Notes under the pieces: model-generated | The model's input: the letters and a program-made list of their open reading frames with translations, nothing else | Database searches by the model: none | What the model was told of the DNA's origin: nothing | Made by a program: the position numbers and the translations under genes | Part shown: piece by piece, positions 1 through 17,141 of the stretch | How positions within the stretch are numbered: position 1 is the stretch's first letter | How the letters are laid out: each line of letters opens with the position of its first letter | NCBI GenBank assembly: GCA_038748225.1 | Contig: JBCDJC010000040.1 | Coordinates: 1-24,000 of the forward strand | DNA from: Cyanobacteria bacterium P01_H01_bin.26 | GTDB taxonomy: Bacteria > Cyanobacteriota > Cyanobacteriia > Phormidesmidales > Phormidesmidaceae | Direction of reading: 5' to 3' | DNA: 24,000 nucleotides

Positions 1-151
1 AGACTTTAGACCAGTTTTTGTATTTTCTCGAACGTCCCCTTAGAACTGCCCTTGTGACACTGCATCCATTACCTAATTTTCAGCTAAAAAAGCTGCGTTG
101 AGAAAATTTCTTCTCTATGCATTAATGATAGCTGAAACCCTCGCTATCAAA

Positions 152-211
152 CGGAGAGGGGGGGTTTCGAACCCCCGATGAACCGAAGCCCATAATAGAT
201 TTCGAGTCTAT
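152..211 (-). tRNA. Partial tRNA-Ser(CGA)-like sequence covering only the anticodon arm through the 3' acceptor strand; possible att-site remnant or pseudo-tRNA
   Basis: Read on the minus strand. Anticodon arm ATAGA-CTCGAAA-TCTAT (211-195, anticodon CGA). Long variable region. Canonical T-arm GGGGG-TTCGAAA-CCCCC (176-160). 3' acceptor strand CCTCTCC plus discriminator G (159-152). No matching 5' acceptor strand (GGAGAGG) or D-arm was found at higher coordinates. Instead, an 11-bp inverted repeat (207-217 / 229-239) abuts it. Confidence 0.45.
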
Positions 212-346
212 AAAGGCGGTAGTTAAAAGCCTTTATAGATAAGGGTTTTAGAAATCTACTTAGTTCGTTTCCCCAGAACTTCCCCCAGGTGGATCTATTC
301 TACACTGCTGGTTTCCTGGGCTGAGTGGGGGTGAGTGGTTATGGCT

Positions 347-727
347 TTAGTATTCGCGGATGGTGAAGATCTGCTGACTGGATTTGGGTTGGTTTTGCTT
401 TAGAACCCTTATAAGGCGATTGGTGAGGCTGGTTTGGGTTTCTAAGTAGGTGTGTAAAGTCTGGACCTGATCGGTGTAGTTACGGTCGTCTTTGCAGATG
501 ATGATGCCGTTGTGGTTGATATTACTGCGGTAGAGCTGAATGAAGTCTTGGCGGTTGAGGGTGATGACGACTCGATTATTTTGGGTGGCGTAGGTTAGGA
601 CGTCTGCGTCGGGGATGCCTTGGTTGGCCTGGCCTGCGTCGTAGGAGGTGAGGACGTTGTAGCCGAGGTTGCGAAGGAGGACGACCATGTCGATGGGGAA
701 GTTTTCGTTGGAGTAGAGGTCAACCAC
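347..727 (-). CDS. DUF5615-family PIN-like (Mut7-C-type) putative toxin
   Basis: 126-aa ORF. N-terminus LYSNENFPIDMVVLLRNLGYNV and DADVLTYATQNNRVVITLNRQDF match the DUF5615 pattern. The GTG start overlaps the stop of the upstream DUF433 gene by 8 nt, giving the classic DUF433/DUF5615 pairing. Confidence 0.8.
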   Translation of the reverse strand: MVDLYSNENFPIDMVVLLRNLGYNVLTSYDAGQANQGIPDADVLTYATQNNRVVITLNRQDFIQLYRSNINHNGIIICKDDRNYTDQVQTLHTYLETQTSLTNRLIRVLKQNQPKSSQQIFTIREY

Positions 728-1052
728 GGGCTAGGTCGTCGGTGTCATCGGTGGAGATGATTTGGTCGATTTCGTGTTGGTTGTCTTGGTAGTAGGCCCA
801 GGCGGCATCGAGGTCGGCGGGGATGAGACTGGGGTAGTTGCGGAGGAGTTCTTCGGTATTGGCTCCTTGTTGATGGAAGGATACGAGGGTCCAGACGGGG
901 ATACGGGTGTTGCGGATGCGGGCGTGGCCACCGCAGACGCCGGGGGTTTTCTGGATAGTGCGGGCTTGGAGTTTGGTGCGCAGCAGCTTGTTTTCCTCGG
1001 GGGTGAGGGAGTCGATGACTTGGATAAGGGAGTCGATCAGCTGGGTGTTCAT
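720..1052 (-). CDS. DUF433-domain putative antitoxin
   Basis: The C-terminal 110 aa of the 173-aa ORF (MNTQLIDSLIQ...GVCGGHARIRNTRIPVWTLVSFHQQGANTEELLRNYPSLIPADLDAAWAYY) match DUF433. I chose the internal ATG at 1050-1052. The longer N-terminal extension is low-complexity and overlaps the upstream gene's 3' end. Confidence 0.8.
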   Translation of the reverse strand: MNTQLIDSLIQVIDSLTPEENKLLRTKLQARTIQKTPGVCGGHARIRNTRIPVWTLVSFHQQGANTEELLRNYPSLIPADLDAAWAYYQDNQHEIDQIISTDDTDDLARG

Positions 1053-1120
1053 GGGATACTCCACAGCACTAGTTTGATTGGGTGTATTGCTATGTATGGC
1101 TTTCAAATGATAACGGGATT

Positions 1121-2107
1121 TTATGGAGCCTGGGGCGCTGGTGGTTGAGTCCGTGGTCCATTGGGGCCGATTTCTAGGTGCCATTCGGGGTGGTTTTGGA
1201 TGGCGGTACGGACGCCTTTGCGGCAGGTGGGATTTTGCCAAAGCATCTGGTAGCGCTGTAGTCGCTGGTCTGGGGTTTCCTCATTGAGGGGAATGGGGGT
1301 GAGACGTTGTTCAACTTGGCGCTGGCTTTCGAGCCATTGCAGGTATTCGGTGTAGAGGCGATTGCCGTATTTACGGATCCAGCCTTGAGCGGCGCTTTGT
1401 TTGGAGGCGGGTGGCTCAGGGAGTCGGGGTATTTTGTGTCTTATTACAAAGGCGAAAAAATCGGGGTCGTCCTCGGCGGAAAAGTCCACCCATTGCTGAG
1501 GTCCGGGAAGTGATGCCTCACCCGTTTGAGAATGCTCAGGTGCATCTAGGGATAGCGTGATTTCTTGGCTATTGGACTGCTCTAGCTCTGAGGAAAGCGA
1601 AGCGATTTTCTCTCTCTTTTTTAAAGAAGAGTTGGAAGGAAGTTGAGAAGGATCTGGGGAATTGGGAAATGCTTGCTGGGATTCGGTTTTGGCGACTGAC
1701 TGTGTCTGAGTTGTCTCAGGGTGTGACAGATCGATCGCTCTAGGTGACAGACCTGTCACAGGTGAGTCAATTTGACTCAGGGTGGGAACGCGCAGATTAA
1801 CGCTACCTTTAATATGTTCTTCTAGCTTGTCGTTGGCGATCAATTCGGCTTTGGCTCGATAAAAGGTACGACGGTTGATGTGCCATTCGCGGCAGAACTG
1901 GGAAACGTTTTCGACACGGAACCACCAGCCTTGTTTTCTGAGGGCAAGGATGAGGTGGTAGAGGTACCCAGCGGGAGTGTAGAAATGGTCGAGCCAGTTT
2001 TGGTGGACGGCCTCTGGGGTGAGTCTGAGGTGTGAGCGGGTAGTGTTTTTTGCAGGCTGCAGACTCTGTCCTCCGTCGTAGGCACTCGGAGAATTTTCTG
2101 TCATCAT
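1121..2107 (-). CDS. Hypothetical winged-helix DNA-binding protein; possible plasmid replication or maintenance protein
   Basis: Long ORF with the HTH-like stretch WWFRVENVSQFCREWHINRRTFYRAKAELIAN. Start placed at MMTENS (2105-2107) because a strong hairpin occupies 2128-2158. The functional call is only by analogy to plasmid-borne wHTH proteins. Confidence 0.6.
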   Translation of the reverse strand: MMTENSPSAYDGGQSLQPAKNTTRSHLRLTPEAVHQNWLDHFYTPAGYLYHLILALRKQGWWFRVENVSQFCREWHINRRTFYRAKAELIANDKLEEHIKGSVNLRVPTLSQIDSPVTGLSPRAIDLSHPETTQTQSVAKTESQQAFPNSPDPSQLPSNSSLKKREKIASLSSELEQSNSQEITLSLDAPEHSQTGEASLPGPQQWVDFSAEDDPDFFAFVIRHKIPRLPEPPASKQSAAQGWIRKYGNRLYTEYLQWLESQRQVEQRLTPIPLNEETPDQRLQRYQMLWQNPTCRKGVRTAIQNHPEWHLEIGPNGPRTQPPAPQAP

Positions 2108-2182
2108 AGGACTAGTTAAATTTACGGATGCCCCGGAGCTGTGCAAGGCGTGGGGCATTTTTTTATGGAATTTGCTGGATAG

Positions 2183-2353
2183 CTAGGCGGCTCGTTCTTG
2201 GCGGTTGAGCAGGCTTTCGAGGGCTTCCTCAATCAGGTCTGAGAGTGAGCGTTTTTGTTGGATTGCGCTGATTTGTGCCCGCTGCTTAAGCTCGGGCGTC
2301 ATGCGGATAGTGAGGTTTTGCCGAGGGGGGTTCGGCTGAGGGGCGCTTTTCAT
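2183..2353 (-). CDS. Ribbon-helix-helix (CopG/Arc-like) small DNA-binding protein, 56 aa
   Basis: Not in the ORF track because it is under 60 aa. My translation is MKSAPQPNPPRQNLTIRMTPELKQRAQISAIQQKRSLSDLIEEALESLLNRQERAA. NLTIRMTPEL forms the beta-strand, followed by two helices, which is typical of RHH. It is transcribed divergently from the XRE gene. Confidence 0.6.
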   Translation of the reverse strand: MKSAPQPNPPRQNLTIRMTPELKQRAQISAIQQKRSLSDLIEEALESLLNRQERAA

Positions 2354-2462
2354 GACCGATGCATAAATCTAATTTGTCCGACTGATCAATCATGTTAATT
2401 ATGAGTGATTATTTGGTCAAGCAATTATGTGATGTCTGGCTTTATTATTTGGAGGTCAATCT

Positions 2463-2936
2463 TTGAAAGTTCGTAAAAAGTCGGCTGTAGCGTTTGTGGA
2501 CGAAGGGTTTTTGAAGCGATTGGGTGAGGTGGTGCATGAAATTCGTGGCGATCAATCGCAGCGGCAGTTTGCGCGGACGATGCAGGTGTCGCAGTCTACG
2601 GTGCAGCAGTGGGAGAATGGTCGAAATGTGCCGAGTTTGGAGAATTTGGAGAAGATTGCTCGGTTGAAGGGGATGCTGGTAGAGGATTTTATTGCTTATC
2701 TGTATGGTCGTAGCCATGGGCCGACGCGAACTGACATCATGGCGCGGGTTGGGGTGATGAAGGCAGAGGATTTTGGTCAGATCTTGCATATTATTGGGGA
2801 TCGGCTTGCGCCGCCTGCTGAGGAGAAGCCGCCGGGAAAGCCGAAAGCCAAGAGTAAGAAGACATCCGCAAAGAAAGTGCGGGTGCCATTAACGCTGGAG
2901 TTAAGTAAACGTACGGAAATGAATTCTGGAGGATGA
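2463..2936 (+). CDS. XRE/Cro-C1-type HTH transcriptional regulator with a lysine-rich C-terminal tail
   Basis: RGDQSQRQFARTMQVSQSTVQQWENGRNVPSLENLEKIARL is a canonical HTH_XRE motif. TTG start preceded by GGAGG (2451-2455). Only a 10-nt gap to the next gene. Confidence 0.8.
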   Translation: MKVRKKSAVAFVDEGFLKRLGEVVHEIRGDQSQRQFARTMQVSQSTVQQWENGRNVPSLENLEKIARLKGMLVEDFIAYLYGRSHGPTRTDIMARVGVMKAEDFGQILHIIGDRLAPPAEEKPPGKPKAKSKKTSAKKVRVPLTLELSKRTEMNSGG

Positions 2937-2946
2937 AGCAAGTTTT

Positions 2947-3273
2947 ATGACTCAAAAGAAGAAACTGGCTGAATTTACATTGGCAGATGGGGAGACCACT
3001 TTTTTAGTGGAGGTGCCTGAGCCGATTAATGAAGATGTAGTAGAAGAAGTTTCTGTCTTGGATGAGCCTCTACTCAAGGCTAAGGAATCATTTGAGGCGG
3101 CCTTGGATAAAGTGATTCCAGTGGCGTCTGCGGCCATGGGTAGGTTAAAGAAAGCTTCGGCAGACGAGGTAGAGGTGAAATTTGGCCTAAATCTGAGTGC
3201 GGATGCTGGGGTGATTTTTTCGAGTGTGGGTAGCGAAGTGACATTTGAGATCACGATGAAGTGGGGAAAATAG
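2947..3273 (+). CDS. Small Trypco2-like (trypsin co-occurring, CU044_2847-like) protein
   Basis: 108 aa. C-terminus VEVKFGLNLSADAGVIFSSVGSEVTFEITMKWGK matches my memory of the trypsin-co-occurring domain 2 family. It sits 14 nt upstream of a trypsin-like protease gene. Confidence 0.7.
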   Translation: MTQKKKLAEFTLADGETTFLVEVPEPINEDVVEEVSVLDEPLLKAKESFEAALDKVIPVASAAMGRLKKASADEVEVKFGLNLSADAGVIFSSVGSEVTFEITMKWGK

Positions 3274-3287
3274 GCAGATAGAACTCT

Positions 3288-5117
3288 ATGGCAGACGGTG
3301 GTAGGAGACTAGATCAGGCTTATAAGTGTGCGATCGCACGCATCCACGGCAAAAGTAACAAGGTGATTGGTACTGGCTTTTTGGTGGACGGTGGTGTGAT
3401 TACCTGCGCCCATGTGGTTCGGGATGCGCTACGGCTGGGTCGCGGTCAGACGCCTGCCCAGGGCTCTAAGGTTATGATTAGCTTTCCGTTTTCTGTATCA
3501 AAGCGACCGATATCGGCTGAGGTAAAAATTTATCGATACTACAAAGAAGAAGACCAGCACCGGGAAGACGTAGCAGGACTGATTTTATTGGAGCCTTTGC
3601 CGGAGAGAACCAGCCCTATCCGACGGATTGAAGGTTATGGTCTGGAAAATTCCTTTCGAGTGTATGGATTTCCTGAGAAGCGAGCAGCTGGGCGAGAGGC
3701 GACGGGACGGTTTATGACCGATCTGGCGGACGGTCTAGTGCAGATTATTGGTAAGGATGGGTTTTCGATTCAGGCTGGTTTTAGTGGTTCTGCAATCTGG
3801 GATGAGCAGGTCGCTGCGGTGGTTGGGATGACTGTGGCGGTGGAGACGGAGGAACAGAACTCGGATATTGGATTTATGGTTCCAGCTTTGCCGCTGGTGG
3901 AGGTGCAGCGAAAGTTAGAATGTTTGGTGTTGGAGTATTTGCTAACGGTAGACGACGAGGGGCTGGCGGCGCAGATAAACGCAGCGACTGCCCAAGCCTA
4001 TGGGCTGAGTTGCCCTGATGGCTGGATAGTGCCTGACGGCATTGAATCAAAGTTAATCGGTCTGCAAGATGTGCAACTGGCTGAAAATGAGTATGAGGCC
4101 ATTTACCGATTCGCAGCTTTGCTAACCCAGCCTGAGCTAGGTCTGGAGCAAGACCTACGGGACCGGATTCAACAATGGGTGGAGCCCAAGGTTGAGAATT
4201 TCCAGAATTTATTAGACCAGGTTCAAGCTCAGCTGGCTGATCTATCAGAAAGCCAAGAGACTGATGCAGAGTCTTTATTACTGATTACGGTGAAGCCTGT
4301 TTCTGGAGATGAATATCCGGTACAGGCTCTGTTTATGCCAGATGTAAGTCAGTATCAGCCTGAGTTTGGCATGGGTGGACAACCGGTACAGGCTCCGAAA
4401 GCTAATAAATTTGGCGAGAATGTGACAGCCGACACCTTATCAAGTTTGGTCCGTGCCTGTGTTGCGGAAGTGACCCAGAAGGCCCCTCAGAGCCTGATGA
4501 TTCATCTGATTTTGCCATTGGATTTAATTCATCAGACGTGCGATCGCACCATCATTGAAAAAGCAGCCTATGATTTTCTGCCTGATGTTTGCATCGGCAT
4601 GCAATACCGCTTTGTAGTTCGCATAGCAGAGCGGCTGGAGCCGCAGCTGTGGAATCTCTTTAGTGTGAACTGGCAAAAAAAATGGACAGCACTACAAAAA
4701 CTGGCAGCAGGTAAGGGATGTAAAGTATTTATTCCAGGTGACAGTTTAGACCCTAAGACGGCCTTATTCTCAAAGCTCAACCATACCGATAGTTTGGGCC
4801 TAAAGCTAGCCAGTGTTTGTAACAATGCTTCCTACCGTGACATTTTTGGATCGGTGATTGCTGCGGGGGTACCAGCAGCGATTTGGTTACGGTCGGATGA
4901 GTTTTCCGATGGACTGGTGGCTATGGATGAAATCGACGGTCTACTGACCTGTAAAATTGCTAGGCTACCGCAGGCAATCCAGCAGGCTCGCTCTGATGCT
5001 ATGGCCGAGGCTGAGGATGCTCACATTGGTCATCATCTGTCTTTTTTATGGGATGACCCTACGCTCATTCCACCCAGTGCCCATCCCAATAATCAAATGT
5101 CTCTTGGAATGAAATAA
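3288..5117 (+). CDS. Trypsin-like serine protease fused to a VMAP-type (vWA-MoxR-associated protein) C-terminal region
   Basis: The N-terminal ~200 aa carry candidate catalytic-triad contexts: GTGFLVDGGVITCAHVV (His), EDVAGLILLE (Asp), GFSGSAIWD (Ser). The remaining ~400 aa are non-catalytic and lie immediately (2-nt gap) upstream of a MoxR ATPase gene, as in ternary vWA-MoxR-VMAP systems. Confidence 0.8.
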   Translation: MADGGRRLDQAYKCAIARIHGKSNKVIGTGFLVDGGVITCAHVVRDALRLGRGQTPAQGSKVMISFPFSVSKRPISAEVKIYRYYKEEDQHREDVAGLILLEPLPERTSPIRRIEGYGLENSFRVYGFPEKRAAGREATGRFMTDLADGLVQIIGKDGFSIQAGFSGSAIWDEQVAAVVGMTVAVETEEQNSDIGFMVPALPLVEVQRKLECLVLEYLLTVDDEGLAAQINAATAQAYGLSCPDGWIVPDGIESKLIGLQDVQLAENEYEAIYRFAALLTQPELGLEQDLRDRIQQWVEPKVENFQNLLDQVQAQLADLSESQETDAESLLLITVKPVSGDEYPVQALFMPDVSQYQPEFGMGGQPVQAPKANKFGENVTADTLSSLVRACVAEVTQKAPQSLMIHLILPLDLIHQTCDRTIIEKAAYDFLPDVCIGMQYRFVVRIAERLEPQLWNLFSVNWQKKWTALQKLAAGKGCKVFIPGDSLDPKTALFSKLNHTDSLGLKLASVCNNASYRDIFGSVIAAGVPAAIWLRSDEFSDGLVAMDEIDGLLTCKIARLPQAIQQARSDAMAEAEDAHIGHHLSFLWDDPTLIPPSAHPNNQMSLGMK

Positions 5118-5119
5118 CG

Positions 5120-6154
5120 ATGGCTGAAAAAGCTAACTGGCGAATTTTCCAGGGAAACCGAAAGCCCCAACAGGATGGGGACTATATCACCAAGCATCTG
5201 CCAGATCCGCCGGGATGGCGGCCCTTTGGTGGTGAGCACGCTGACAGTGTGGCCACTCTGAAAAAGCAGCAACGCGGGGCCACGTTTCAGGCAACGGATG
5301 ATGAAATCGATATGGTGAACGCGGCGTTGTATCTGCGGAGACCGTTGTTGATTACAGGCAAACCTGGCACTGGTAAAACGTCTTTGGCCTATGCAGTAGC
5401 CCACGAGCTTAACTTAGGCGAAGTACTATACTGGCCCATCACCACCCGTACTACCCGAAAAGAAGGACTTTATAGCTATGACGCTATTGCCCGTTTGCAA
5501 GATGCGCAGCTGGAGCGAGAAAAAGACATTGGCAGCTACATTACCCTTGGCCCTCTGGGTACCGCTCTGTTGCCAACGGACCACCCAAAGCGGCCACGGG
5601 TTTTATTGATCGATGAGATCGACAAGAGTGATATTGATCTCCCCAACGACCTGCTGCACCTGTTTGAAGATGGAGAGTTTGATATTCCTGAGGTGCTGCG
5701 GATGGCGGAGACACTTAAGGAGTCTGACACCACTGTGAAGATCCGTACAGCCTACAGTGAGCCGGACGAAACTCAGTTTGTAGAAACCCAGACGGGGCGG
5801 TTTCGCTGTGGGGCATTTCCTTTTGTGGTGTTGACCAGCAACGGTGAACGAGACTTTCCACCTGCATTTTTGCGGCGCTGTCTGCGGCTGAATATGGGTG
5901 AGCCAGATCCAGCGCGGCTCAAGAAAATTGTGGAAGCTCATCTAGGTCTGGACCTGGACGATAAGGATAAGGTGGACGCTGCCGAGGAACTGATTAAACA
6001 ATTTTGCCAGCGAGCGAAAAAGGGTGACCTGGCTACAGACCAGCTGCTGAATGCAGTGTATTTTGTGACACGGGAGCGGGTACCGGAGCAAAAAACACGG
6101 GATGCCCTAGTGGCTAAGCTGATGAAGTATCTCTCGAGTACTGAGGATGCATGA
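5120..6154 (+). CDS. MoxR-type AAA+ ATPase
   Basis: Walker A LITGKPGTGKTS, Walker B VLLIDEIDKSD, and downstream PPAFLRRCLRL. The stop overlaps the start of the next gene (ATGA at 6151-6154). Confidence 0.9.
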   Translation: MAEKANWRIFQGNRKPQQDGDYITKHLPDPPGWRPFGGEHADSVATLKKQQRGATFQATDDEIDMVNAALYLRRPLLITGKPGTGKTSLAYAVAHELNLGEVLYWPITTRTTRKEGLYSYDAIARLQDAQLEREKDIGSYITLGPLGTALLPTDHPKRPRVLLIDEIDKSDIDLPNDLLHLFEDGEFDIPEVLRMAETLKESDTTVKIRTAYSEPDETQFVETQTGRFRCGAFPFVVLTSNGERDFPPAFLRRCLRLNMGEPDPARLKKIVEAHLGLDLDDKDKVDAAEELIKQFCQRAKKGDLATDQLLNAVYFVTRERVPEQKTRDALVAKLMKYLSSTEDA

Positions 6155-9100
6155 GGTCTGATCGCCGTCCTGTCAAAGACCCTCAGGGAGTGGATGGATT
6201 TACCACGCTGTTGCGTCAGGCGGGGGTAGACTTTGGTGTGGAGGACCTGGCTGATGCCCTGTGGTTAGCCAAGTTTGTGGATGATCCAGGGGTAGATGAG
6301 GCCATACAGGCTGATGATCCAAATAAAGAGCAAGAAGGTCCCACTGTTCGCGAAGAATATTTAGAGCCTGAGGAAGACCTGGATCAGGATAATACGGCCC
6401 AGCTGAGCTTACCGTCGACTCAGGCAAAATCTCAAGGTGGCGAGAAGCCAGACGGTATCCCGATCAAGGCTCCAGCAGCCCCGGCACTGAGAATACGGCT
6501 AGACCTATCACGGGCGCTGCGACCATTGCGACGTATGGTGGACTCACCAGGTCGATTGATGTTTGATGAAGCGGCCACGGTAGAACAGATTGCCGATCAA
6601 CAGATTTGGTCGCCAGTGATGAAGCCTGCGCCAGAGCGATGGTTAGATGTGGCACTGGTGGTGGAAGAAACTCAAGCACTGTCAGTATGGAAAGAGACCA
6701 TTACCGAAGTGCAAACCCTGCTAGAGCGGCAGGGAGCTTTTCGGCAGGTGACCACCTGGCGACTAAAAGAACAAGGGGGTAAGTTGGCCCTGTTTCAACA
6801 TTGGCGGCGACCAGGTCAGCGACCTCGGCAGGCTAAGGACCTGTGGGATCCGTCTGGGCGGCGGTTGATTTTGTTGTTGAGTGATTGTACGTCAGTGGCC
6901 TGGCACGATGGCTCCATATTGACCTGGCTGCAAACCTGGAGCAAGCGCGCCCCGACTGCCATGATGCAGCTATTGCCCGAGAGGTTGTGGTCTCAGACAG
7001 GGCTGGGAGGGGGAGTGCCAGTGCAGCTAGGGGCCATTGAACCTGGCTGTGTAAATGAGCGACTGATGATGACCTATCGGTTACCAATCTACAAACAGTT
7101 ACTGGCAGGGATAGATACAGCAGACCGTGTGAAGTTACCCGTTGTGACTTTGCAGGCTCAGCCCCTGAAGCAGTGGGCCAAAGTGGTGGCAGGCAGTGGT
7201 GAGAGCTGGGCCACAGGCATGGTGTTTGATGGGGGAGAGAAGAAAAGAGAAGAGATAGTAGATAAAGGCCAAGGGATAGGCAAAATAGAGCCAGCACTAC
7301 GGGTGCAGCGGTTTCGGATGACGGCGTCGTTGATGGCGCAGGAACTGGCGGGGCTGATGTCCGTGGCTCCGGTAAGTCCCCCCATTGTGGATTTAATCCG
7401 GCAGACGCTGTTGCCTAGGGCGGAGCCGGTGCATGTGGCGGAAGTGTATATGGGAGGGCTGATGGAGCCCTCGCAGGCTAATGACCAGAGTGAAGTGACC
7501 TATGACTTTGATGATGAGGTGCGCAAGCTGTTGGCGAATTCAGTACCTCGGTCGGTGTCAAAGCATGTGTTAAATGCGGTGTCGGCTTACATCTCAGAGC
7601 GGTTGAATTTGAATACCCGCAGCTTTGAAGCGTTGCTGAGCGTTGACTTTGGAGATGATGTTGAAGCGGAGGGAATGGTGGTGCCCTTTGCCAGGGTAGC
7701 GGAACAAACCCTAAGGCGGATGGGGCGAGAGTATGCGGCGATCGCAGATCGAATACAGACGCGACCAAAGGTAGCATTACCGTCTGTTGAAGGGGATGCG
7801 AGTAATTGGGTGCCTCTATTACAGACATTCACGTTTAGAGAGGCGATGGTTGTTTTTGAAACTCAGTCAGAAACAACAGTAGAAAGGTCGTTAGAGGTGG
7901 CAGAGCCTGACGATGTAGAAGACGAAATTCAACGCTATGGGTTAACGCCTCGTGAAGCCGAGGTGTGGCGTTTGCGTAGGCAAGGACTTACTCATCAGGA
8001 AATCGCCCAGGAACTAGTTATTACAGCTAATACGGTTAAAAAACATGTCAATAATATTTTGTCTAAACAGCAGCTTGCGAGAGTACAGTCCAATGACGAT
8101 AATAAGCGTTATAGCTTAACTTCCCGTGAAGCAGATGTATGGCAGTTACGTCAGCGGGGAGCGACCTATCAAGAAATCGCTCAAGAACTGTTTATTTCAG
8201 TAAATACAGTCAAAAAACATCTCAAGAGTATTTTGGCTAAACGGCAATTCGTAGAGAAAAAAGAAGAACTAGCTGCTGAAAGTCAGCGATACGGATTTAC
8301 AGAGCGTGAGGCAGCCGTGTGGGAGCTGCATCAGTTTAATCATAACAAAGAGGAAATTGCTAAAGAACTTTACATTACTGTTGATACCGTTAGAAAGCAT
8401 TTAAGGAATATTCAAGCCAAACGTGAACAGGTTGAATCTCTCGGCGAAGATATGCGCTTTGAAAGATTCTCCTTTGAAACTGCTTACATAACTCTTGAGA
8501 AGACTGATGAGCAATCGCCGGAGCTGTTAATCACCTATCAAGAAAGTCATGGGAGGCAGTATATTGAAGGCCTAGGGAAAGACATTGAACTCCCAATGGT
8601 GTTACTTTCTGGTGGAACATTTGAAATGGGCTCGCCGGAGGATGAACAGGGATATGATCCTATGGACGGTCCACAGCATGTGGTTAGGGTACCTTCCTTC
8701 TTTATAGCCAAGTATCCTATTACTCAAGCTCAGTGGTGTGTGATTGCTGCGATGCCGCAGGTGAATCGTGAACTGGAGGCTGACCCGTCACATTTCAAGG
8801 GAGACAATTGCCCTGTTGAGAGTGTGAGCTGGTTTGATGCAGTAGAGTTTTGTGCGCGTCTCTCTAACCATACGGGGCGCGAATATCGCTTACCCACCGA
8901 AGCTGAATGGGAATATGCCTGTCGTGCCGGAACAACAACTCCATTCCATCTTGGTGAGACTATTACGGCAGACCTAGCAAATTATAATGCCACTGAAACT
9001 TTTGGTTCCGGTCCTGAGGGAGAATATCGAGAACAAACAACCGATGTAGCAAGCTTCCCAGCCAACGCCTTTGGCCTTTATGACATGCACGGCAATGTGT

Positions 9101-9348
9101 GGGAATGGTGTTTAGACCACTGGCATGACAACTATGAAGGGGCTCCTACCGACGGTAGTGCTCGGATAGACCCTAGCAAGAGTAACAAAAAAGACTCTGA
9201 CGAGAGCAAAAACCGTGTGCTGCGTGGCGGTTCGTGGTACATCTATCCTGAGGACTGCCGGTCGGCGGCCCGCAACTCCCTTACCCCGGGCGACCGCAGC
9301 AGCTCTAACGGTTTTCGGGTAGTGTGTGGTTCGGCGAGGACATCTTAG
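6151..9348 (+). CDS. vWA-type partner of MoxR. Architecture: SAV_2336-like N-terminal region, vWA-like region, three LuxR/GerE HTH modules, and a C-terminal FGE-sulfatase (CLec-fold) domain bearing DGR VR1
   Basis: N-terminus LLRQAGVDFGVEDLADALWLAKFV. vWA-like strands LDVALVVEETQ and RRLILLLSDCTSVAW. Three ~49-aa repeats with the (Q/K)RY.LT.REA.VW...EIAQEL.I..NTVKKH pattern (7930-8076, 8104-8250, 8284-8427). FGE-sulfatase motifs GGTFEMGSP, RLPTEAEWEYACRAGT, HGNVWEWC, LRGGSW, GFRVV. Confidence 0.8.
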   Translation: MRSDRRPVKDPQGVDGFTTLLRQAGVDFGVEDLADALWLAKFVDDPGVDEAIQADDPNKEQEGPTVREEYLEPEEDLDQDNTAQLSLPSTQAKSQGGEKPDGIPIKAPAAPALRIRLDLSRALRPLRRMVDSPGRLMFDEAATVEQIADQQIWSPVMKPAPERWLDVALVVEETQALSVWKETITEVQTLLERQGAFRQVTTWRLKEQGGKLALFQHWRRPGQRPRQAKDLWDPSGRRLILLLSDCTSVAWHDGSILTWLQTWSKRAPTAMMQLLPERLWSQTGLGGGVPVQLGAIEPGCVNERLMMTYRLPIYKQLLAGIDTADRVKLPVVTLQAQPLKQWAKVVAGSGESWATGMVFDGGEKKREEIVDKGQGIGKIEPALRVQRFRMTASLMAQELAGLMSVAPVSPPIVDLIRQTLLPRAEPVHVAEVYMGGLMEPSQANDQSEVTYDFDDEVRKLLANSVPRSVSKHVLNAVSAYISERLNLNTRSFEALLSVDFGDDVEAEGMVVPFARVAEQTLRRMGREYAAIADRIQTRPKVALPSVEGDASNWVPLLQTFTFREAMVVFETQSETTVERSLEVAEPDDVEDEIQRYGLTPREAEVWRLRRQGLTHQEIAQELVITANTVKKHVNNILSKQQLARVQSNDDNKRYSLTSREADVWQLRQRGATYQEIAQELFISVNTVKKHLKSILAKRQFVEKKEELAAESQRYGFTEREAAVWELHQFNHNKEEIAKELYITVDTVRKHLRNIQAKREQVESLGEDMRFERFSFETAYITLEKTDEQSPELLITYQESHGRQYIEGLGKDIELPMVLLSGGTFEMGSPEDEQGYDPMDGPQHVVRVPSFFIAKYPITQAQWCVIAAMPQVNRELEADPSHFKGDNCPVESVSWFDAVEFCARLSNHTGREYRLPTEAEWEYACRAGTTTPFHLGETITADLANYNATETFGSGPEGEYREQTTDVASFPANAFGLYDMHGNVWEWCLDHWHDNYEGAPTDGSARIDPSKSNKKDSDESKNRVLRGGSWYIYPEDCRSAARNSLTPGDRSSSNGFRVVCGSARTS
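9220..9338 (+). repeat. DGR variable repeat VR1 (last 119 nt before the RTS-stop of the vWA/FGE-sulfatase gene)
   Basis: Aligns without gaps to 10914-11032 and 12018-12136. Apart from one third-position difference from the TR-like copy in codon 22, differences fall only at positions 1-2 of 13 codons. Confidence 0.85.
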
Positions 9349-9473
9349 CCCTTTGCGCTTGTTCACTTTTGCCCTGTTCATATTTTGCATTATTTTTTCT
9401 TTTTATAAAGAAAATGAGCTGAAGTTGCGAGGCTCATGGCATTGTTTGAGAACGTTGGCTAGAGGCTGGGCGT

Positions 9474-9875
9474 ATGAAAAAAGAGTTGCCTATTGTGCAA
9501 AAGACCTACGACCTGCTGAAGTGGTATGTGCCGATTTTGAATAAGCTGCCTCGTGAGCATAAGTTTTTGCTGGGGGACCGAATGATTACAGGGCTATACG
9601 AACTTATGGAAGGACTGGTTTTGGCGCGATACAGCTCAGACAAACTGCCTCGACTCCAGGTGTTAAACAGTCGGTTGGATCTGCTGCGGCATCAGACTCG
9701 TCTGCTGCTGGACTTTGAGCTGATGTCTGTGAAGCGCTATGAGTATGCTGGGCAGTTGCTGAATGACATTGGCCGAGAGCTGGGCGGTTGGATACGACAG
9801 CAGCGGGCAAAGGCAGCATGGAACGCTACGGCAACCTCTGGCCCGATATCATTGCCTTTGAAAATCTGCTGCTAG
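9474..9875 (+). CDS. avd: Avd-like accessory variability determinant (four-helix-bundle, 23S rRNA IVS protein family)
   Basis: YDLLKWYVPILNKLPREHKFLLGDRM and IGRELGGWIRQQ match the four-helix-bundle/Avd pattern. It lies directly upstream of, and overlaps by 58 nt, the RT start. Confidence 0.85.
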   Translation: MKKELPIVQKTYDLLKWYVPILNKLPREHKFLLGDRMITGLYELMEGLVLARYSSDKLPRLQVLNSRLDLLRHQTRLLLDFELMSVKRYEYAGQLLNDIGRELGGWIRQQRAKAAWNATATSGPISLPLKICC

Positions 9876-10881
9876 CGGCCCGTAAAGCCCAGCGAGGCAA
9901 ACGCTATCAGCCCAATGTGCTGCAGTTAACTACCACCTGGAAACAGAACTGCTGGCGCTGCACACCGAGCTGACGACTAAAACTTATGCACCAGGTCCGT
10001 ACTACACCTTCGACATTTATGAACCTCAGCCGCGCCTGATCTCAGCCGCGCCCTACCGGGACCGGGTAGTGCACCATGCCCTATGTGAGCACATCATGCC
10101 GATTTTTGAACGCACTTTCATTGCTGACTCTTATGCCAACCGGCTGGGCTATGGTGTCCACCGCGCCCTGCGGCGGTTTATTGGCTTTGCACGGTCCAGC
10201 CGCTACGTGCTACAGTGCGACATCCGAAAATACTTCCCCAGCATTGATCATGAAATTCTAAAAACCAGGCTACGGCGGAAGCTTAAGTGTCCTGATACTC
10301 TCTGGCTAATCGATACCATCATTGACCATAGTAATGAGCAAATTCCGGTACATGAGCTTTTTCCAGGGGATGACCTACTAACGATGCTAGAGCGGCGACG
10401 GGGGTTGCCCATTGGTAATCTGACCAGTCAGTTTTTTGCCAATGTTTATCTGAATGGCCTGGACCATTTTGTCAAAGAGCAGCTGCGGGTGAGAAAGTAC
10501 GTCCGTTATGTGGATGACTTTTCGCTCTTTAGCGATGACCGTGCCTTTTTGGCCGATGCTCGCCTGGCCATAGAAGACTTTCTTGCAGATATTCGCCTTA
10601 AGATTCACCCGGTAAAAAGTCAGCTGTTTGAAACCCGTTATGGAGCTAACTTTCTGGGATTTCGTATACTGCCCGACCGCATTCGTGTGCGTAAAGAAAA
10701 CCTGCGCAGGGGCAAACGACGATTACGACAGCTGCAGGCCGATTATGCCAACGGTAGGCTAAGCCTGGCGGACCTGGATCGTTCGATACAGAGCTGGTTG
10801 GCCCACCTGAACCATGGCGATACCTGGCAGTTGCGTAAACAGATCTTTGCTGACCTTGTGTTTACCCGCTATTGTGGATAG
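9818..10881 (+). CDS. DGR-type reverse transcriptase interrupted by an apparent 1-nt frameshift near 9926-9928 (possible pseudogene or sequencing error)
   Basis: N-terminus [36 protein letters not shown] lies in one frame (9818-9925). It continues as [53 protein letters not shown] in the adjacent frame, which is open from 9886. DGR hallmark [16 protein letters not shown] and catalytic YVDD are both present. Confidence 0.9.
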
Positions 10882-10913
10882 GCAAGGCAGTAAAGGCGGG
10901 GCAGGCACCCCGA

Positions 10914-11032
10914 CTGCGTGGCGGTTCGTGGAACAACAATCCTGAGAACTGCCGGTCGGCGATCCGCGGCAACTCTTCTCCGGGCGACCGCTACTTCGAT
11001 CTCGGTTTTCGGGTAGTGTGTGGTTCGGCGAG
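10914..11032 (+). repeat. RT-proximal template-repeat (TR)-like copy of the 119-bp repeat; chimeric or atypical
   Basis: Starts 32 nt after the RT stop. Hot codons 7, 8, 9 and 12 are AAC AAC AAT AAC, as expected for a TR. Codons 17-30 carry non-adenine differences from both VRs. The 3' flank diverges from the shared VR flank immediately after GGCGAG. Confidence 0.65.
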
Positions 11033-11234
11033 CACTCTTCACGAGGTGAGAACTGATGGATGGGAATCTATTGGGAGGGCGTCAGAAGAGTCCAGACCTG
11101 TTCCGGTGATGCTGGTGACAGCATCCGAATATAAAATCGGGTTGGGCAAGCCTGGTAAGCTTAGCTGAACGGTTACCCAACCCACCCAATTCGTTTTTTG
11201 GAAGCGCCCCAAAACGGGAGCCTCTGCGGATACT

Positions 11235-12146
11235 ATGGCAGCACCACCCGAAACTAAACCACAGCTAGTCGTTCGCTATCGAGACCGTACAGCTCAGTTT
11301 TTTACCGAAGATGATCTAGCGCTAACAGCGGAGCAGACAGCTCTAGAAATGGTGCTTATTCCTGAGGGGGAATTTATGATGGGCTCCCCTCAAGATGAGC
11401 AAGGGCGGGATTTATATGGTGAAGTGCAAGACGACTACAAAGGTGTTGATGTAGAAGGCCCTCAGCACCTGGTGAGGGTGCCTTCCTTCTTTATTGGTAA
11501 ATACCCGGTAACCCAGGCCCAATGGCGGGCAGTGGCCGCTCTACCCCAGATAGAGCAGGAGCTTGAGCCAAACCCGTCCAGCTTTAAGGGAGACAATCGC
11601 CCGGTAGAGCAAGTCAGCTGGCACGATGCGATGGAGTTCTGCGCGCGGCTACAGAAGCATACAGGGAAGCCCTATCGTTTACCTAGCGAAGCTGAATGGG
11701 AATATGCCTGTCGGGCAGGCACGACTACGCCATTCCACTTTGGCACATCGATCACAACAGATTTAGCCAATTATTCTGGAACCGATTATGAATACGGAGG
11801 TAGAACCTTTTCAGGGGCCTATGGCAATGGTCCTCATGGTGTTTATCGAGAAGAAACTACAGATGTGGGAAGTTTTGCGATCGCAAATGCCTTTGGTCTC
11901 TATGACATGCACGGCAACGTCTGGGAATGGTGTTTAGACCACTGGCACAAAACCTATGAAGAAGCTCCTAAAGATGGTCGCGCATGGATATCCTCTGGCG
12001 AGAGTGAATTGCGCGTACTGCGTGGCGGTTCGTGGTACGGCAATCCTGAGTTCTGCCGGTCGGCGTTCCGCGACGACTATACCCCGGGCGACCGCAGCGA
12101 CAATAGCGGTTTTCGGGTAGTGTGTGGTTCGGCGAGGACATCTTAG
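11235..12146 (+). CDS. Free-standing FGE-sulfatase (CLec-fold) domain protein; second DGR target carrying VR2
   Basis: 303 aa. A close paralog of the C-terminal ~290 aa of the 6151-9348 product (GPQHLVRVPSFFIGKYPVTQAQW, RLPSEAEWEYACRAGTTTPFH, HGNVWEWCLDHWH, LRGGSW...GFRVVCGSARTS). Confidence 0.9.
   Translation: MAAPPETKPQLVVRYRDRTAQFFTEDDLALTAEQTALEMVLIPEGEFMMGSPQDEQGRDLYGEVQDDYKGVDVEGPQHLVRVPSFFIGKYPVTQAQWRAVAALPQIEQELEPNPSSFKGDNRPVEQVSWHDAMEFCARLQKHTGKPYRLPSEAEWEYACRAGTTTPFHFGTSITTDLANYSGTDYEYGGRTFSGAYGNGPHGVYREETTDVGSFAIANAFGLYDMHGNVWEWCLDHWHKTYEEAPKDGRAWISSGESELRVLRGGSWYGNPEFCRSAFRDDYTPGDRSDNSGFRVVCGSARTS
12018..12136 (+). repeat. DGR variable repeat VR2
   Basis: Gap-free alignment with VR1 shows 17 differences, all at codon positions 1-2 of 10 codons. 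The following 42 nt are also 37/42 identical to the VR1 flank. Confidence 0.85.
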
Positions 12147-12291
12147 CCCTTTGCACTTGCTCTCTTGTGCCCTCTTCACCCATAATATTTTTATGCCCTC
12201 AAAAAATAAAAACATAAGCTAACCTGACGAGATTAGTGCGGTATTAGCAGTGCTTTGTCCGTTACTATTTATCAGCGCTAGCCTACCCCAT

Positions 12292-12738
12292 TTACCAAGG
12301 CAACCACTTTCGCGTTTGCTTCGAAGTCTGCTCAACAGACGCCAAAATTCGACTATTCACCTCATCCTGAGATTCTCCACCAATCGTCCCAATCTGCCGA
12401 TCCAACTCATTGGCCGCCAACGACTCATTCACCATATAAGCCTCCTGGGCAGGCTGGGGTAACGTATCCCGCCGACCTTTTTTGCCGCCGGTCTCCCGAT
12501 ACAGGTCATTCACCGTGCAGCCAAACAGCTCTTTCGTCTGAGTCACAGCGGCCTGTTCATATATATCGCCTGTACCGCCATTCTCCTTAATCGACTTATT
12601 AAACCGCCGATTTACCAGCGCTCCATCTACACGCCTACGCGGCGGAATAAGCGCCTGGGAGTTTCCGCTCAACTCTAATTGGGAGGCAGTCTCTTCCTGG
12701 TTGGGAGCCTCGTTCTTCCACCAATTCAAAAAAGCCAT
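12292..12738 (-). CDS. Hypothetical protein (may be the C-terminal part of a frameshifted larger gene)
   Basis: 148-aa ORF. It overlaps the upstream ORF by 104 nt. No family recognised with confidence. Confidence 0.5.
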   Translation of the reverse strand: MAFLNWWKNEAPNQEETASQLELSGNSQALIPPRRRVDGALVNRRFNKSIKENGGTGDIYEQAAVTQTKELFGCTVNDLYRETGGKKGRRDTLPQPAQEAYMVNESLAANELDRQIGTIGGESQDEVNSRILASVEQTSKQTRKWLPW

Positions 12739-13186
12739 GGGCTTCGTTCTGTTCCTGGGGTGTAAATTCTAAAAGTTGTTCCAAACCGGTTTTGATCAGC
12801 TCTAGACCATCGGGATACATCAAAAAGGCATCCAGAATCTCGTGCCGATACTCATAGTCCCAACGGTCTGGGGTGAAGTTAAAACTGTTTAACACCAGCA
12901 TGTAGGCATCTAAACAGCTTTCGTAGCTGGCCTGGGCTGAGAAGTGAGCCAATGCCTTAATCCAGGTGACCTTATAGCGACGGTCCCCAAACTGTTTGAC
13001 ATCTTGAACGTAGTTTTGGGGCTGCGTCACCACACCACTGGCCTCGTTAAACCGGGTCCAGGCGTTCCAAACTCGTTTTTTTAGCTCGGGCAGCTTCATT
13101 GTGACGTCAGTTGGCTTTGGCTCTAGGATACCGCTAGTTTTGGGATTGCCATAGCGGTTTGAGAATAATTGTTTAACATTACTCAT
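12635..13186 (-). CDS. Hypothetical protein
   Basis: 183-aa ORF. Its start overlaps the stop of the DUF3368 gene by 8 nt, so they probably share an operon. No family recognised. Confidence 0.5.
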   Translation of the reverse strand: MSNVKQLFSNRYGNPKTSGILEPKPTDVTMKLPELKKRVWNAWTRFNEASGVVTQPQNYVQDVKQFGDRRYKVTWIKALAHFSAQASYESCLDAYMLVLNSFNFTPDRWDYEYRHEILDAFLMYPDGLELIKTGLEQLLEFTPQEQNEAHGFFELVEERGSQPGRDCLPIRVERKLPGAYSAA

Positions 13187-13664
13187 CAGCTTGCTGTTTG
13201 AGCAACTGGACTAAACTCTCAGAAAGCCATAGGCCAGCATTTTGGAGGGCTTGAATGGGTTCTGAAACAGATGAAATAATGCCCCTGCGTTTGGCAAGTA
13301 CGATTATCCCACCTGTTCCCAGAGTGGGGATTTTGAGGCTCACAGCACAGCGACGAGCGGCAGCGTCATCGAGGAGAGCGGTGTAATCAGAGTGGGTCAG
13401 GGCATAGCTAATGACTTCTGACTCACCGGCTCCGAGATCCCAGGCCGATACTTTTGGGTCGGTAGTGATGGTTGCCAGTCGGTTGGCCCAATTAGCTTGA
13501 GGTAAGCTTTGGGCTGCAATGTCCTCTTTGCAAGCGGTTACTTCAAACCACACGGCAGGCGGGACGTTTACCTGGCCGAATAGCTGAGGCAATAAATCAG
13601 CGAGCTGGCTTTTGTAGAGGGTAATCAGAGGCGATGCATTGATGATGACGTGTTTAATCGGCAT
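13179..13664 (-). CDS. DUF3368-family PIN-like nuclease (putative toxin)
   Basis: VIINASPLITLYKSQLADLLPQLFGQVNVPPAVWFEV, DLGAGESEVISYAL and GTGGIIVLAKRRGII match the DUF3368/PIN pattern. Paired with the UPF0175 gene upstream. Confidence 0.8.
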   Translation of the reverse strand: MPIKHVIINASPLITLYKSQLADLLPQLFGQVNVPPAVWFEVTACKEDIAAQSLPQANWANRLATITTDPKVSAWDLGAGESEVISYALTHSDYTALLDDAAARRCAVSLKIPTLGTGGIIVLAKRRGIISSVSEPIQALQNAGLWLSESLVQLLKQQADE

Positions 13665-13908
13665 TACTGAGTTCTTTGATCAAGTCAGCTTCGGTGTATT
13701 GGAAGGGGGATACCTGGTAGCGGGAAAGTGCCTGAATGAAGTCAGCACGGGTAAGCCCTGCGATTTCGGCAGCTTTTCCTTGGGAAACTTGTTCCAGTTC
13801 GTACCATTTGACAGCGGCGGCGATGCGCATTTCTTGGGCAAATTCCTCAGGGGTTTTGCGTAGGGCTGAGAAAGCAGTATCAGGGAGGTTGAGGGTAATG
13901 CTGGTCAT
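13654..13908 (-). CDS. UPF0175-family putative antitoxin
   Basis: 84 aa. FAQEMRIAAAVKWYELEQVSQGKAAEIAGLTRADFIQALSRYQVSPF is typical of UPF0175. 11-nt overlap with the DUF3368 gene. Confidence 0.8.
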   Translation of the reverse strand: MTSITLNLPDTAFSALRKTPEEFAQEMRIAAAVKWYELEQVSQGKAAEIAGLTRADFIQALSRYQVSPFQYTEADLIKELSNAD

Positions 13909-14048
13909 GGGAATTAGTTTGCGGGGTGTGGGTCTATGCTAACGGACCTAACCCTAAGCTTTTAAGTCTTTGTTAGGAGTGGTATTTATGGCCTGTTGCA
14001 GTTTGGGGTGAGTGATCGCAAATTTCTCCTGGAGCAGTGAATTTGGGC

Positions 14049-14621
14049 TCACGGTTGGCCCCCTTCCATGCGGCGCTGTTTTAGATGACCGTAGGTGTCC
14101 AGCTCGGCCTGGATTTCTAGCTTGTAGCGCATAATGCCCCGGCGTTGACCGGTGGCTTTAAATGAGGCCAACTCTGCGTCTGAGAAGTCAGCTTCGGTAA
14201 CGGCTAGCTGATCGACAAAGTTTTCCAGGTCGGCCAGCTCGGCGGCGATGGACTGCTGCATTATGCCGTTTTGGGTTTGGCGGAGGGCCAGGGCACTACT
14301 AACGCTATCGGGCATGAGCTCCCCTTCAATTACTCCGGCATTGCTCCATTCGTGGGCATAGCGGGCCTTGGTATTGGCGACCCATTGGGTACGGTCAGCA
14401 TGCCTGACTCGACTAAATTCATCAAACAGTGTCCGTGCCAGCTCGGTATAGGTGGAGCCTTGTTTTAGCAGCGGTTCAGGGGCCACCTGCACAATCCATT
14501 GAAACCAGCGATTGCGGATGGTGGCATCGCTTACCCCCAGTTGTTCGCCTAGCTGTACGGCTGTGTATGAGCCCTGTTTTGTTGCCGTTCGATCAACGGA
14601 CAAATTAGGTATATCATTCAT
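14049..14621 (-). CDS. Hypothetical HTH-containing protein
   Basis: ORF with the probable HTH YTAVQLGEQLGVSDATIRNRW. I chose the ATG at 14619-14621 (MNDIPNL), which is preceded by AAGGA, over the upstream GTG. Confidence 0.6.
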   Translation of the reverse strand: MNDIPNLSVDRTATKQGSYTAVQLGEQLGVSDATIRNRWFQWIVQVAPEPLLKQGSTYTELARTLFDEFSRVRHADRTQWVANTKARYAHEWSNAGVIEGELMPDSVSSALALRQTQNGIMQQSIAAELADLENFVDQLAVTEADFSDAELASFKATGQRRGIMRYKLEIQAELDTYGHLKQRRMEGGQP

Positions 14622-14801
14622 GGCGTAATCCTTGTATTTAAAGGGTTCTAGCACCGTTCACCCGCTGTTCGTGGCACGTTCAGCAGATGCTCGAATATGT
14701 ACAGTACAAGTGTACGGATAAGTTCAGGATAATTCAATAGCTGTATTGCAAAAACTTTGGTTCTAGGTAGCTGGTGGGGTAGTGAACGAGAAACCGGACA
14801 A

Positions 14802-15545: not shown

Positions 15546-15591
15546 CGATGGAATGTCGGTGTAGGCTAGCTGCCAGGCTACTGGTTTTGCT

Positions 15592-17140: not shown

Positions 17141-17141
17141 G

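Follow-up and report, generated by a model that had tools for sequence, protein, structure and literature searches.

A VMAP-type vWA-MoxR ternary locus of a marine cyanobacterium, joined to a diversity-generating retroelement that appears decayed and has an adenine-depleted template repeat

VMAP-ternary systems were defined, together with the Trypco1 and Trypco2 domains and the VMAP-M and VMAP-C regions, by Kaur et al. (2020, eLife, PMC7159879), who found ~80% of those from cyanobacteria and gammaproteobacteria to have an associated diversity-generating retroelement (DGR). In that account the vWA component is usually fused directly to an FGE-sulfatase domain (FGS), and cyanobacterial FGS combines with at least ten other domains, always N-terminal to it. 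Doré et al. (2024, PNAS, PMC10907252) describe DGR targets combining vWA and C-type-lectin-fold (CLec) domains beside MoxR, trypsin-VMAP and Trypco1 genes, propose the diversified protein as a sensor, and report degenerate loci and diversification in trans. Here we describe a locus of this kind from the first 24 kb of contig JBCDJC010000040.1 of Cyanobacteria bacterium P01_H01_bin.26 (the window; the analysis covers these 24 kb of the genome, and coordinates below are those of the window, forward strand unless stated otherwise). It is a VMAP-type vWA-MoxR ternary system, with a predicted role in conflict, that is cytoplasmic and belongs to a filamentous-type marine cyanobacterium; the CLec (FGE-sulfatase) tip of its vWA protein is the first target of a physically joined DGR cassette. 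The kind of system is already described, the triplication of a LuxR module in the vWA protein is a minor lineage-specific elaboration, and it is the mode of decay of the cassette that is unusual: the most interesting part is an adenine-depleted template repeat (TR) whose ‘before’ state is preserved in a sister genome.

Five co-directional open reading frames (ORFs; 2463–2936, 2947–3273, 3288–5117, 5120–6154 and 6151–9348) are separated by gaps of 10, 14, 2 and -4 nt, exactly as an earlier note on this DNA, made from the sequence alone, had described, and are followed 3′, in order, by avd, a reverse transcriptase (RT) gene, the template repeat and a second FGE-sulfatase target. The second ORF (2947–3273; 108 aa) is a Trypco1 (trypsin-co-occurring domain 1) protein (PF19493, 82.8 bits, 2.9e-23, cut-off 24.6; NCBIfam CU044_2847_fam, 66.8 bits); the Trypco2-like identity that the earlier note had given it was rejected, the profile match being to Trypco1 with no match to Trypco2. 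The third ORF (3288–5117; 609 aa) encodes the VMAP protein, with a trypsin-like region (aa 1–200), VMAP-M1 (aa 233–335; PF19963, 53.9 bits, 3.4e-14, cut-off 25) and VMAP-C (aa 368–591; PF20028, 100.7 bits, 1.5e-28, cut-off 27). The N-terminus is predicted to be a trypsin-like serine protease, an assignment that stands on an alignment of 17 family members in which the triad H42/D94/S166 is invariant, and on the profile built from this alignment, which finds chains of Deg/HtrA, Spl, V8 and trypsin among PDB entries (4e-8 for the best).

The fourth ORF (5120–6154; 344 aa) encodes an AAA+ ATPase (AAA_5, 41.1 bits, 2.3e-10, cut-off 22) with intact Walker A (GKPGTGKT at aa 80) and Walker B (LLIDEID at aa 162) motifs. 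Sequence searches of the PDB returned no matches for the whole VMAP protein, nothing for the vWA profile and only generic AAA+ matches for the ATPase, and structures were therefore predicted. The 13 PDB structures that best match the AlphaFold2 model of the ATPase (pLDDT 77) are all NorQ or CbbQ MoxR ATPases (E 2.8e-9, TM 0.68 on target), dynein and McrB come next in the ranking, and on this modelled fold the protein is assigned to the MoxR clade. Its sequence agrees at 100% identity with the protein recorded at NCBI as ‘MoxR family ATPase’ for Cyanobacteria bacterium P01_H01_bin.26. The fifth ORF (6151–9348; 1065 aa) encodes the vWA component, which comprises an SAV_2336-type vWA region (aa 31–485; NCBIfam SAV_2336_NTERM NF041121, 414.7 bits, 5e-124, cut-off 200), three tandem LuxR/GerE helix-turn-helix (HTH) units, an FGE-sulfatase/CLec domain (aa 816–1058; 190.2 bits, 7e-56) and a variable repeat at its end. 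The AlphaFold2 model of its aa 1–550 (pLDDT 78.8) matches NorD best, then vWF A1, CMG2, the integrin I domain and CLCA1 VWA; all of these fold matches are weak (best E 2.7e-3) and Pfam makes no VWA call in this protein. NorD is the vWA partner in the NorQD complex, so that the two models match NorQ and NorD respectively. The trypsin, MoxR and vWA assignments made in the earlier note thus hold, given the profile and structure matches, the NCBIfam match and the order of the genes.

Pfam GerE (90.2 bits in 3 stretches) and motif positions place the three LuxR/GerE units of the vWA protein at 7933–8451 (aa 595–649, 653–707 and 713–767), which agrees with the three LuxR HTH modules and terminal FGE domain that had been read from the sequence. 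Profile searches found no receiver or autoinducer-binding domain beside these units in the vWA protein, and its matches to NarL, CsgD and MalT are confined to the HTH and lie far under family cut-offs. Neither the 1065-aa vWA protein nor the 303-aa second target had a match in exact-sequence look-ups. No transmembrane-like segment was found in any locus protein in a scan of the window proteins and HTH modules are present, which argues for a cytoplasmic system. The cluster is headed by a gene for an XRE-family HTH protein (2463–2936; 157 aa, TTG start; Pfam HTH_3, 2.8e-11), a lineage-specific first member that is 89–98% conserved only in the closest loci (L002–L004) and was detected in none of the more distant ones.

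Related loci were collected by a scan of one genome per species, which gave 406 loci, the best 80 of which were kept; all of the name-classified ones are cyanobacterial, and the denominators used here are the loci with enough flank (63 upstream, 58 downstream). The gene immediately upstream of vWA is MoxR in 61/63 loci, and a VMAP homologue lies upstream in 62/63, with a Trypco1 homologue upstream of the VMAP gene in 26/63. An FGE domain is found ≤3.5 kb downstream in 52 of 58 loci. When the vWA N-terminus was the sole query, 96 of the 120 best database proteins carried FGE-sulfatase, the remaining homologues being mostly truncated or equipped with S8, kinase, NACHT or other modules; the C-terminal modules of vWA homologues thus vary (FGE, S8, kinase, NACHT, TIR, GerE). 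A single GerE unit occupies the same place between vWA and FGE in at least six protein clusters (47–56% identity), LuxR occurs in only 3 of the 58 surveyed loci, and the triple unit is found in the clade of the window (L001, L002 and L003). A search of a plasmid collection gave only two short FGE matches. Profiles and gene neighbourhoods together support the earlier proposal that this is a ternary system of VMAP type whose vWA component is diversified by a DGR. The same note's suggestion that the domain combination may be undescribed fails, the association being reported in PMC7159879 and PMC10907252 and the triple-LuxR version being present, intact, in L003.

That the MoxR operon and the DGR cassette are neighbours by accident only could be argued from the modest number of loci with avd or RT within 10 kb (22/58), and from the operon of Adonisia turfae, which has no cassette and ends in an S8 peptidase. 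However, the first variable repeat (VR1) lies inside the vWA gene itself, FGE is present in 52 of the 58 loci, among them all 22 with avd or RT, and the order vWA-FGE, avd, RT, TR and stand-alone FGE target recurs in L003, L006, L012, L016, L030 and L077, among others, across genomes from Leptolyngbya-like cyanobacteria to Trichodesmium erythraeum. Together with the ~80% DGR association of Kaur et al., this makes accidental adjacency extremely improbable, and the link between operon and cassette drawn in the earlier note is borne out by the FGE domains of the vWA homologues and the avd or RT genes of the surveyed loci.

In the window a 120-nt repeat is present in three copies: VR1 (9220–9339) at the 3′ end of the vWA-FGE gene, with variable codons between 9238 and 9308; TR (10914–11033); and VR2 (12018–12137), at the 3′ end of the second, stand-alone FGE-sulfatase/CLec target (11235–12146; 303 aa; FGE-sulfatase, 191.3 bits, 3e-56). 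A 20-nt core of the repeat has three matches in the window and none in 100 shuffles. Both variable repeats (VRs) stop 9 nt short of the stop codon that closes an FGE-sulfatase domain. The repeats also differ at their 3′ ends in the manner of an initiation of mutagenic homing element (IMH) and its template-side counterpart (IMH*): after a common GGTTCGGCGAG, both VRs read GACATCTTAG and TR reads CACTCTTCAC. By its orthologous position and IMH*-type 3′ end the copy at 10914–11033 is the template, although one depleted of adenines. An alternative identity for it, as the remnant of a third VR, was rejected: the flanks are orthologous to those of the sister TR (94–99% identical) and the 3′ end is of TR type.

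Compared with this TR, VR1 has 23 mismatches, only 9 of them at TR adenines, and VR2 has 19, with 8 at adenines. In 17 related loci 88–100% of TR-VR mismatches fall at TR adenines, a proportion that in the window does not reach 60% for any repeat pair, so that the adenine bias typical of a DGR is absent when the window's own TR is used. When the orthologous TR of the 92% identical sister contig (L001; ENA contig ERZ1740070 NODE_1322) is taken as template instead, 14 of 17 mismatches of VR1 and 13 of 15 of VR2 are at adenines, and since the window VRs fit this sister-type TR, the bias was present historically. In the sister cassette the RT is intact (354 aa), avd ends at its normal stop and the TR is canonical and A-rich (88–94% of mismatches at A).

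The two templates differ at 14 positions, all between positions 55 and 89 of the repeat, and 12 of these are adenines in the sister (hypergeometric p = 3e-7). Of the 29 adenines that the sister TR has in its 120 nt, 12 are lost and 17 are present in the window TR, and the changes at lost adenines are to G, T and C. Where the sister reads AAC AAC AAT ACC CCG GAC GAC CGC AAC AAC AAC AAC, the window TR reads GGC AAC TCT TCT CCG GGC GAC CGC TAC TTC GAT CTC. The affected positions are A-rich codons, mostly AAC or AAT, in all 15 aligned outgroup TRs, and because these more distant templates agree, the window state is taken to be derived. Ordinary drift or deamination was rejected as an origin of the changes, which are A-specific, turn the base into G, T or C, and fall together within a stretch of 35 nt. 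When metagenomes were scanned with the TR 3′ end, the L001 contig was the sole match.

Neither VR of the window holds any of the new non-adenine bases that its TR has at positions 55–89. Two other bases, G71 and T87, are common to both window VRs and the window TR, and the sister has A and C at these positions. Because the VRs keep the imprint of the older A-rich TR together with G71 and T87, homing appears to have continued after the split from the sister and to have halted before or at the change in TR. The order of events would then be a split of the lineages, homing in the window lineage, replacement of the 3′ half of TR by adenine-mutagenised sequence, and no homing since; to judge from these repeats, the cis DGR would have written neither VR after its template changed. 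How TR came to be altered is a more tentative matter. That adenine-mutagenised sequence was written over it, through retrohoming of its own cDNA despite the IMH*-type end or through gene conversion from VR to TR, is to our minds a possibility just short of an even chance. In phage BPP-1, adenine mutagenesis is known to strike TR only after IMH* has been exchanged for IMH.

The remaining lesions of the cassette are in its two protein-coding genes. The avd accessory gene (9474–9875; 133 aa; NCBIfam DivGenRetAVD NF033474, 137.4 bits, 1.8e-40, cut-off 80, equivalog; PF22296) has lost its stop (TGA to TGG), which adds 18 residues compared with the 115-aa Avd of L001 and alters codon 2 of the RT. 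The DGR-type RT gene (9818–10881; RVT_1, 64.3 bits, 1.7e-17) retains the YVDD and GNLTSQ motifs and is disrupted by a 1-nt deletion at ~9926 (CAG TTT AAC to CAG TTA AC) relative to the intact 354-aa RT of L001 and L003, which leaves a 51-aa N-terminal ORF and a 270-aa remainder; the window accordingly has no intact RT. Two contigs in the Logan assembly of run SRR22824304 match window positions 2812–6163 and 9327–11599 with 100% identity. In this independent assembly the RT is split likewise (51 + 261 aa) and all three lesions (RT, avd stop and TR) are present, which argues that they are not artefacts of one assembler. Thus the earlier note was right in part: avd, RT, a template-like repeat and a second target do follow the operon, with an RT that is split and a template that is not canonical. 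Its view that the sensor can be rewritten does not hold for a cis DGR with three lesions and VRs unwritten since the TR change. The cis DGR appears to be decayed and dead, and we infer that the receptor repertoire would now be frozen unless a second DGR acts in trans.

It is unlikely, in our estimate, that the DGR still functions. For it to do so, the frameshift would have to be bypassed or stem from an error in reads or assembly, or activity would have to be supplied in trans, and the odd TR would be a second template with a programme of its own. Diversification of vWA-CLec targets in trans is documented for Thiohalocapsa in PMC10907252, the analysis sees only 24 kb of this genome, the genes for vWA, MoxR and VMAP are intact, and an intact DGR elsewhere in the genome could diversify both VRs. 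Both assemblies with the frameshift also derive from a single read set, so that a systematic read error is possible. On the other side, these two assemblies agree on the RT deletion, three independent lesions coincide, and homing would have copied the new non-adenine bases of TR faithfully, especially near the IMH end, and neither VR has them. Degenerate cassettes are, moreover, common in the family: of the 22 loci with avd or RT, 6 have avd without RT, and L040 has an RT stub and L074 an RT without detectable TR.

What is left of the cassette in L007, L011, L019, L027, L032, L040, L047, L072 and L074 is an avd fragment, an RT stub or an RT with no recognisable TR, and many such related VMAP loci still hold two FGE targets; partial loss of the cassette seems to be frequent in the VMAP-DGR family.

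From the anatomy of the locus, the MoxR-vWA pairs NorQ-NorD and CbbQ-CbbO and the model of Doré et al. (2024), a mechanism can be proposed in which the CLec tip acts as the sensor. The hypervariable tip would bind an intracellular, invader-derived ligand, and the vWA domain would present the ligand-bound state to a MoxR hexamer. ATP-driven remodelling of the complex by MoxR, acting through VMAP-C, would then license the trypsin domain of the VMAP protein, with Trypco1 as adaptor or inhibitor, and the licensed protease would cleave host or partner proteins. The LuxR units may tether the sensor to DNA, or a released HTH module may provide a transcriptional output. Hypervariability is confined to the CLec tip. 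As a whole, a VMAP-ternary system with a CLec-tip sensor and a decayed cis DGR is the explanation that we favour, and we regard it as more probable than not.

The polarity of the system might also be the opposite, as Kaur et al. have it, with VMAP as the part that senses and the domains fused to vWA as effectors. Here MoxR-activated trypsin would cleave the vWA protein and free the LuxR-HTH and a hypervariable FGS effector, which would bind invader molecules directly in a dominant-negative or sequestering mode. This is the model of the system-defining paper (PMC7159879, as summarised in PMC10907252), and two features of the loci agree with it: VMAP-M/C is the region most divergent between sisters (54–68% identity, against 94–98% in the flanks), as expected of a conflict surface, and the module fused to vWA has been swapped among close relatives (Adonisia has an S8 peptidase where the window has LuxR-FGE). 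For a programmable tip that binds ligands and is rewritten by a DGR, however, the part of receptor is more natural than that of effector, FGE/CLec domains are not known to be toxic, and cleavage and release are putative. We consider this polarity rather unlikely, though a real possibility.

A third proposal makes the locus a regulator and not an anti-invader device: its diversified ligand-binding domain and LuxR HTH would adjust expression in response to signals from the environment or from kin (‘regulatory pathway tuning’). The target protein does have three LuxR HTH units, an XRE regulator heads the cluster, no defence phenotype is known, and a regulatory part for the DGR targets of cyanobacteria has been proposed by Vallota-Eastman et al. 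(2020, PMC7517822). The scarcity of LuxR in the survey stands against it, most members being without any HTH, and so do the constant partners (protease, Trypco1 and MoxR) and the modules that take the position of LuxR in relatives (TIR, NACHT, kinase or S8), which conflict systems typically have. A text search of PMC7517822 also found no mention of MoxR, trypsin or LuxR. The lack of an HTH in most relatives makes a role in regulation alone less likely, and we judge it improbable.

The sensor mechanism with decayed cis DGR that we favour has several points against it. To the opposite polarity proposed by Kaur et al., the single read set, the possible supply in trans and the weak vWA fold matches with no Pfam call, already described, are added the following. 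As a single sequence, the VMAP protein matches Trypsin_2 below the Pfam gathering cut-off (24.4 bits, 5e-5), and either direct self-homing or VR-to-TR gene conversion could be the source of the altered template. No experimental work on VMAP-type systems was found in the searchable literature and PADLOC has no model for the locus proteins, and for these reasons we only infer a role in defence and the order of events.

If the overwriting of TR is real, the window and its sister form a natural before-and-after case of a DGR destroying its own template, with the L001 TR (matched by that of L003) as the ‘before’ state, and self-destruction of the template would be a failure mode that freezes the receptor repertoire. 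Some TR-VR differences that surveys have listed as ‘non-A-to-N’ could also have arisen in this manner; Wu et al. (2018) report at most 11 per target, and here there are 14 such differences for VR1 and 11 for VR2. The sequences are direct evidence for a loss of adenines from a TR in the A-to-N pattern, and pipelines that insist on A-biased mismatches when they look for DGRs would overlook or misinterpret adenine-depleted cassettes. The locus itself opens no new question; it is a well-resolved example of the programmable-receptor immune systems proposed for multicellular bacteria.

Among the sisters, L003 (metagenome-assembled genome (MAG) ‘Cyanobacteria bacterium P01_A01_bin.15’, JBCCAQ010000013.1) has ~90% nucleotide identity to the window over positions 1–16537. 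Its gene order is the same (XRE, Trypco1, the three LuxR units, both targets and the downstream genes), its whole system is intact, and its VMAP-M/C allele differs from that of the window. In the VMAP gene, aa 1–200 are 94–98% identical to the L003 protein and aa 201–609 only 54–68%. The mosaic stretch is sharp (3900–5300, covering VMAP aa 201–609 and the first ~60 MoxR codons), with 60–68% nucleotide identity to L003 and 93–98% in the flanks on both sides; its boundary is reproduced by the independent assembly L083, and the other VMAP-M/C allele is common to L002, L003 and Adonisia. The VMAP-M/C module looks like the product of a recombinational replacement, as far as these alignments indicate. 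The two FGE-sulfatase domains outside the VRs (8500–9350 and 11250–12150) have 78–87% nucleotide identity to the sister, compared with 93–98% in the rest of the operon.

In L001 and L002, metagenome contigs from different samples, a CAA to TAA nonsense change is found at codon 208 of the vWA gene (L001 2032–2655 and L002 6068–6691, orthologues of window 6151–6774). The DGR cassette of L001 is intact; the L002 contig ends at VR1 and its cassette is not visible. DNA that is ~90% identical is thus found in three states (operon intact and DGR dead in the window; everything intact in L003; vWA nonsense in L001 and L002), a comparison that shows fast decay and recombination of the parts of the system, and the intact sister locus in a public MAG is the better object for experiments. 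The closest cultured relative is Adonisia turfae CCMR0081 (L004; NZ_QXHD01000003.1, 6306–12700), in which the XRE-Trypco1-VMAP-MoxR proteins have 91–97% identity, VMAP excepted, and the vWA N-terminus 83%. Its vWA C-terminus is an S8/S53 peptidase in place of LuxR-FGE; no avd or RT was found within 10 kb, and a separate FGE-sulfatase gene lies just downstream (13233).

Outside the operon and cassette, the neighbours downstream (12292–16514, both strands) have the appearance of mobile or plasmid-type maintenance genes, and include a DUF3368 (PIN-like)/UPF0175 pair (13179–13908) and a ParA/CbiA ATPase (15592–16227), identified by synteny with the called genes of L001; a DUF433 protein is encoded upstream (720–1241). 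Synteny with the sister MAG stops at ~16537. Beyond this point (16766–18425, forward strand) there is a PadR regulator gene followed by a 427-aa ORF without Pfam match, the middle of which (17403–17966) is a degenerate 12/24-nt tandem array of ~30 units encoding ‘DLAQ/ALAQ’-type repeats between hydrophobic ends. On the reverse strand, a 167-aa Phage_integrase-family ORF (18911–19414) covers the first ~107 of 172 profile positions, lies in a stretch of lower G+C content (0.44 vs ~0.51) and is probably a truncated tyrosine recombinase. Positions 1–4000 and 16000–18000 have an unusually strong positive GC skew of the forward strand (0.29–0.34 per kb), whatever the gene orientation, and these regions hold long spurious antisense ORFs (e.g. 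2445–2789 and 2952–3254, reverse strand). Promoter and terminator scans of the window were at or below shuffle expectation and uninformative on the limits of the operon, and Rfam and tRNA scans of the window gave no matches.

Compared with known systems, the ATPase and vWA protein resemble NorQ-NorD and CbbQ-CbbO in their best structural matches (NorQ and CbbQ for the former, NorD for the latter) and in the adjacency of AAA+ and vWA genes. Those pairs, however, serve in the maturation or reactivation of metabolic enzymes, lack a VMAP, a protease and a hypervariable domain, and are only remotely related in sequence (13–18% identity). With the Bordetella phage BPP-1 (Mtd) and Treponema denticola TvpA cassettes the locus has in common avd, RT, TR and a VR at the 3′ end of a gene for a C-type-lectin fold, template codons rich in AAC and AAT, and the IMH/IMH* difference at the 3′ end of the repeat. 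It differs in having two targets, the target being cytoplasmic and inside a protease/ATPase system, and, unlike what the IMH rule of BPP-1 would lead one to expect, its TR has a signature of adenine mutagenesis despite an IMH*-type end. The Esr pathway of Schaalia odontolytica (bioRxiv 10.64898/2026.09.08.750141), the first experimental support that we found for the ‘ternary threat sensor’ idea, likewise places a MoxR-vWA pair downstream of a variable sensor, but this sensor is of beta-propeller type and located at the surface, the output is through kinase/FHA and Esx secretion, and VMAP and DGR are absent.

Closer still are DGR loci 4, 5 and 7 of Thiohalocapsa sp. PB-PSB1, which, according to PMC10907252, also combine a vWA+CLec target with MoxR, trypsin-VMAP and Trypco1, and include ‘degenerate’ loci with missing or pseudogenised machinery whose targets are served in trans. 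The host there is a gammaproteobacterium and the targets have tandem CLec or NACHT/phosphodiesterase inserts and no LuxR; term searches of that paper did not find adenine loss in TR as a mode of degeneration. In Kaur et al. (PMC7159879), LuxR is not mentioned in the text, which names HTH domains in general, and the text supplement has no LuxR, GerE or FGS entries. With the VMAP-ternary systems of that paper the locus nevertheless shares the MoxR, vWA and VMAP-M/C trio, a trypsin N-terminus paired with Trypco, an FGS at the extreme C-terminus of vWA with extra domains N-terminal to it, and a DGR in the neighbourhood; it differs from them in that the extra domains are three tandem LuxR HTH units and in that the DGR appears decayed.

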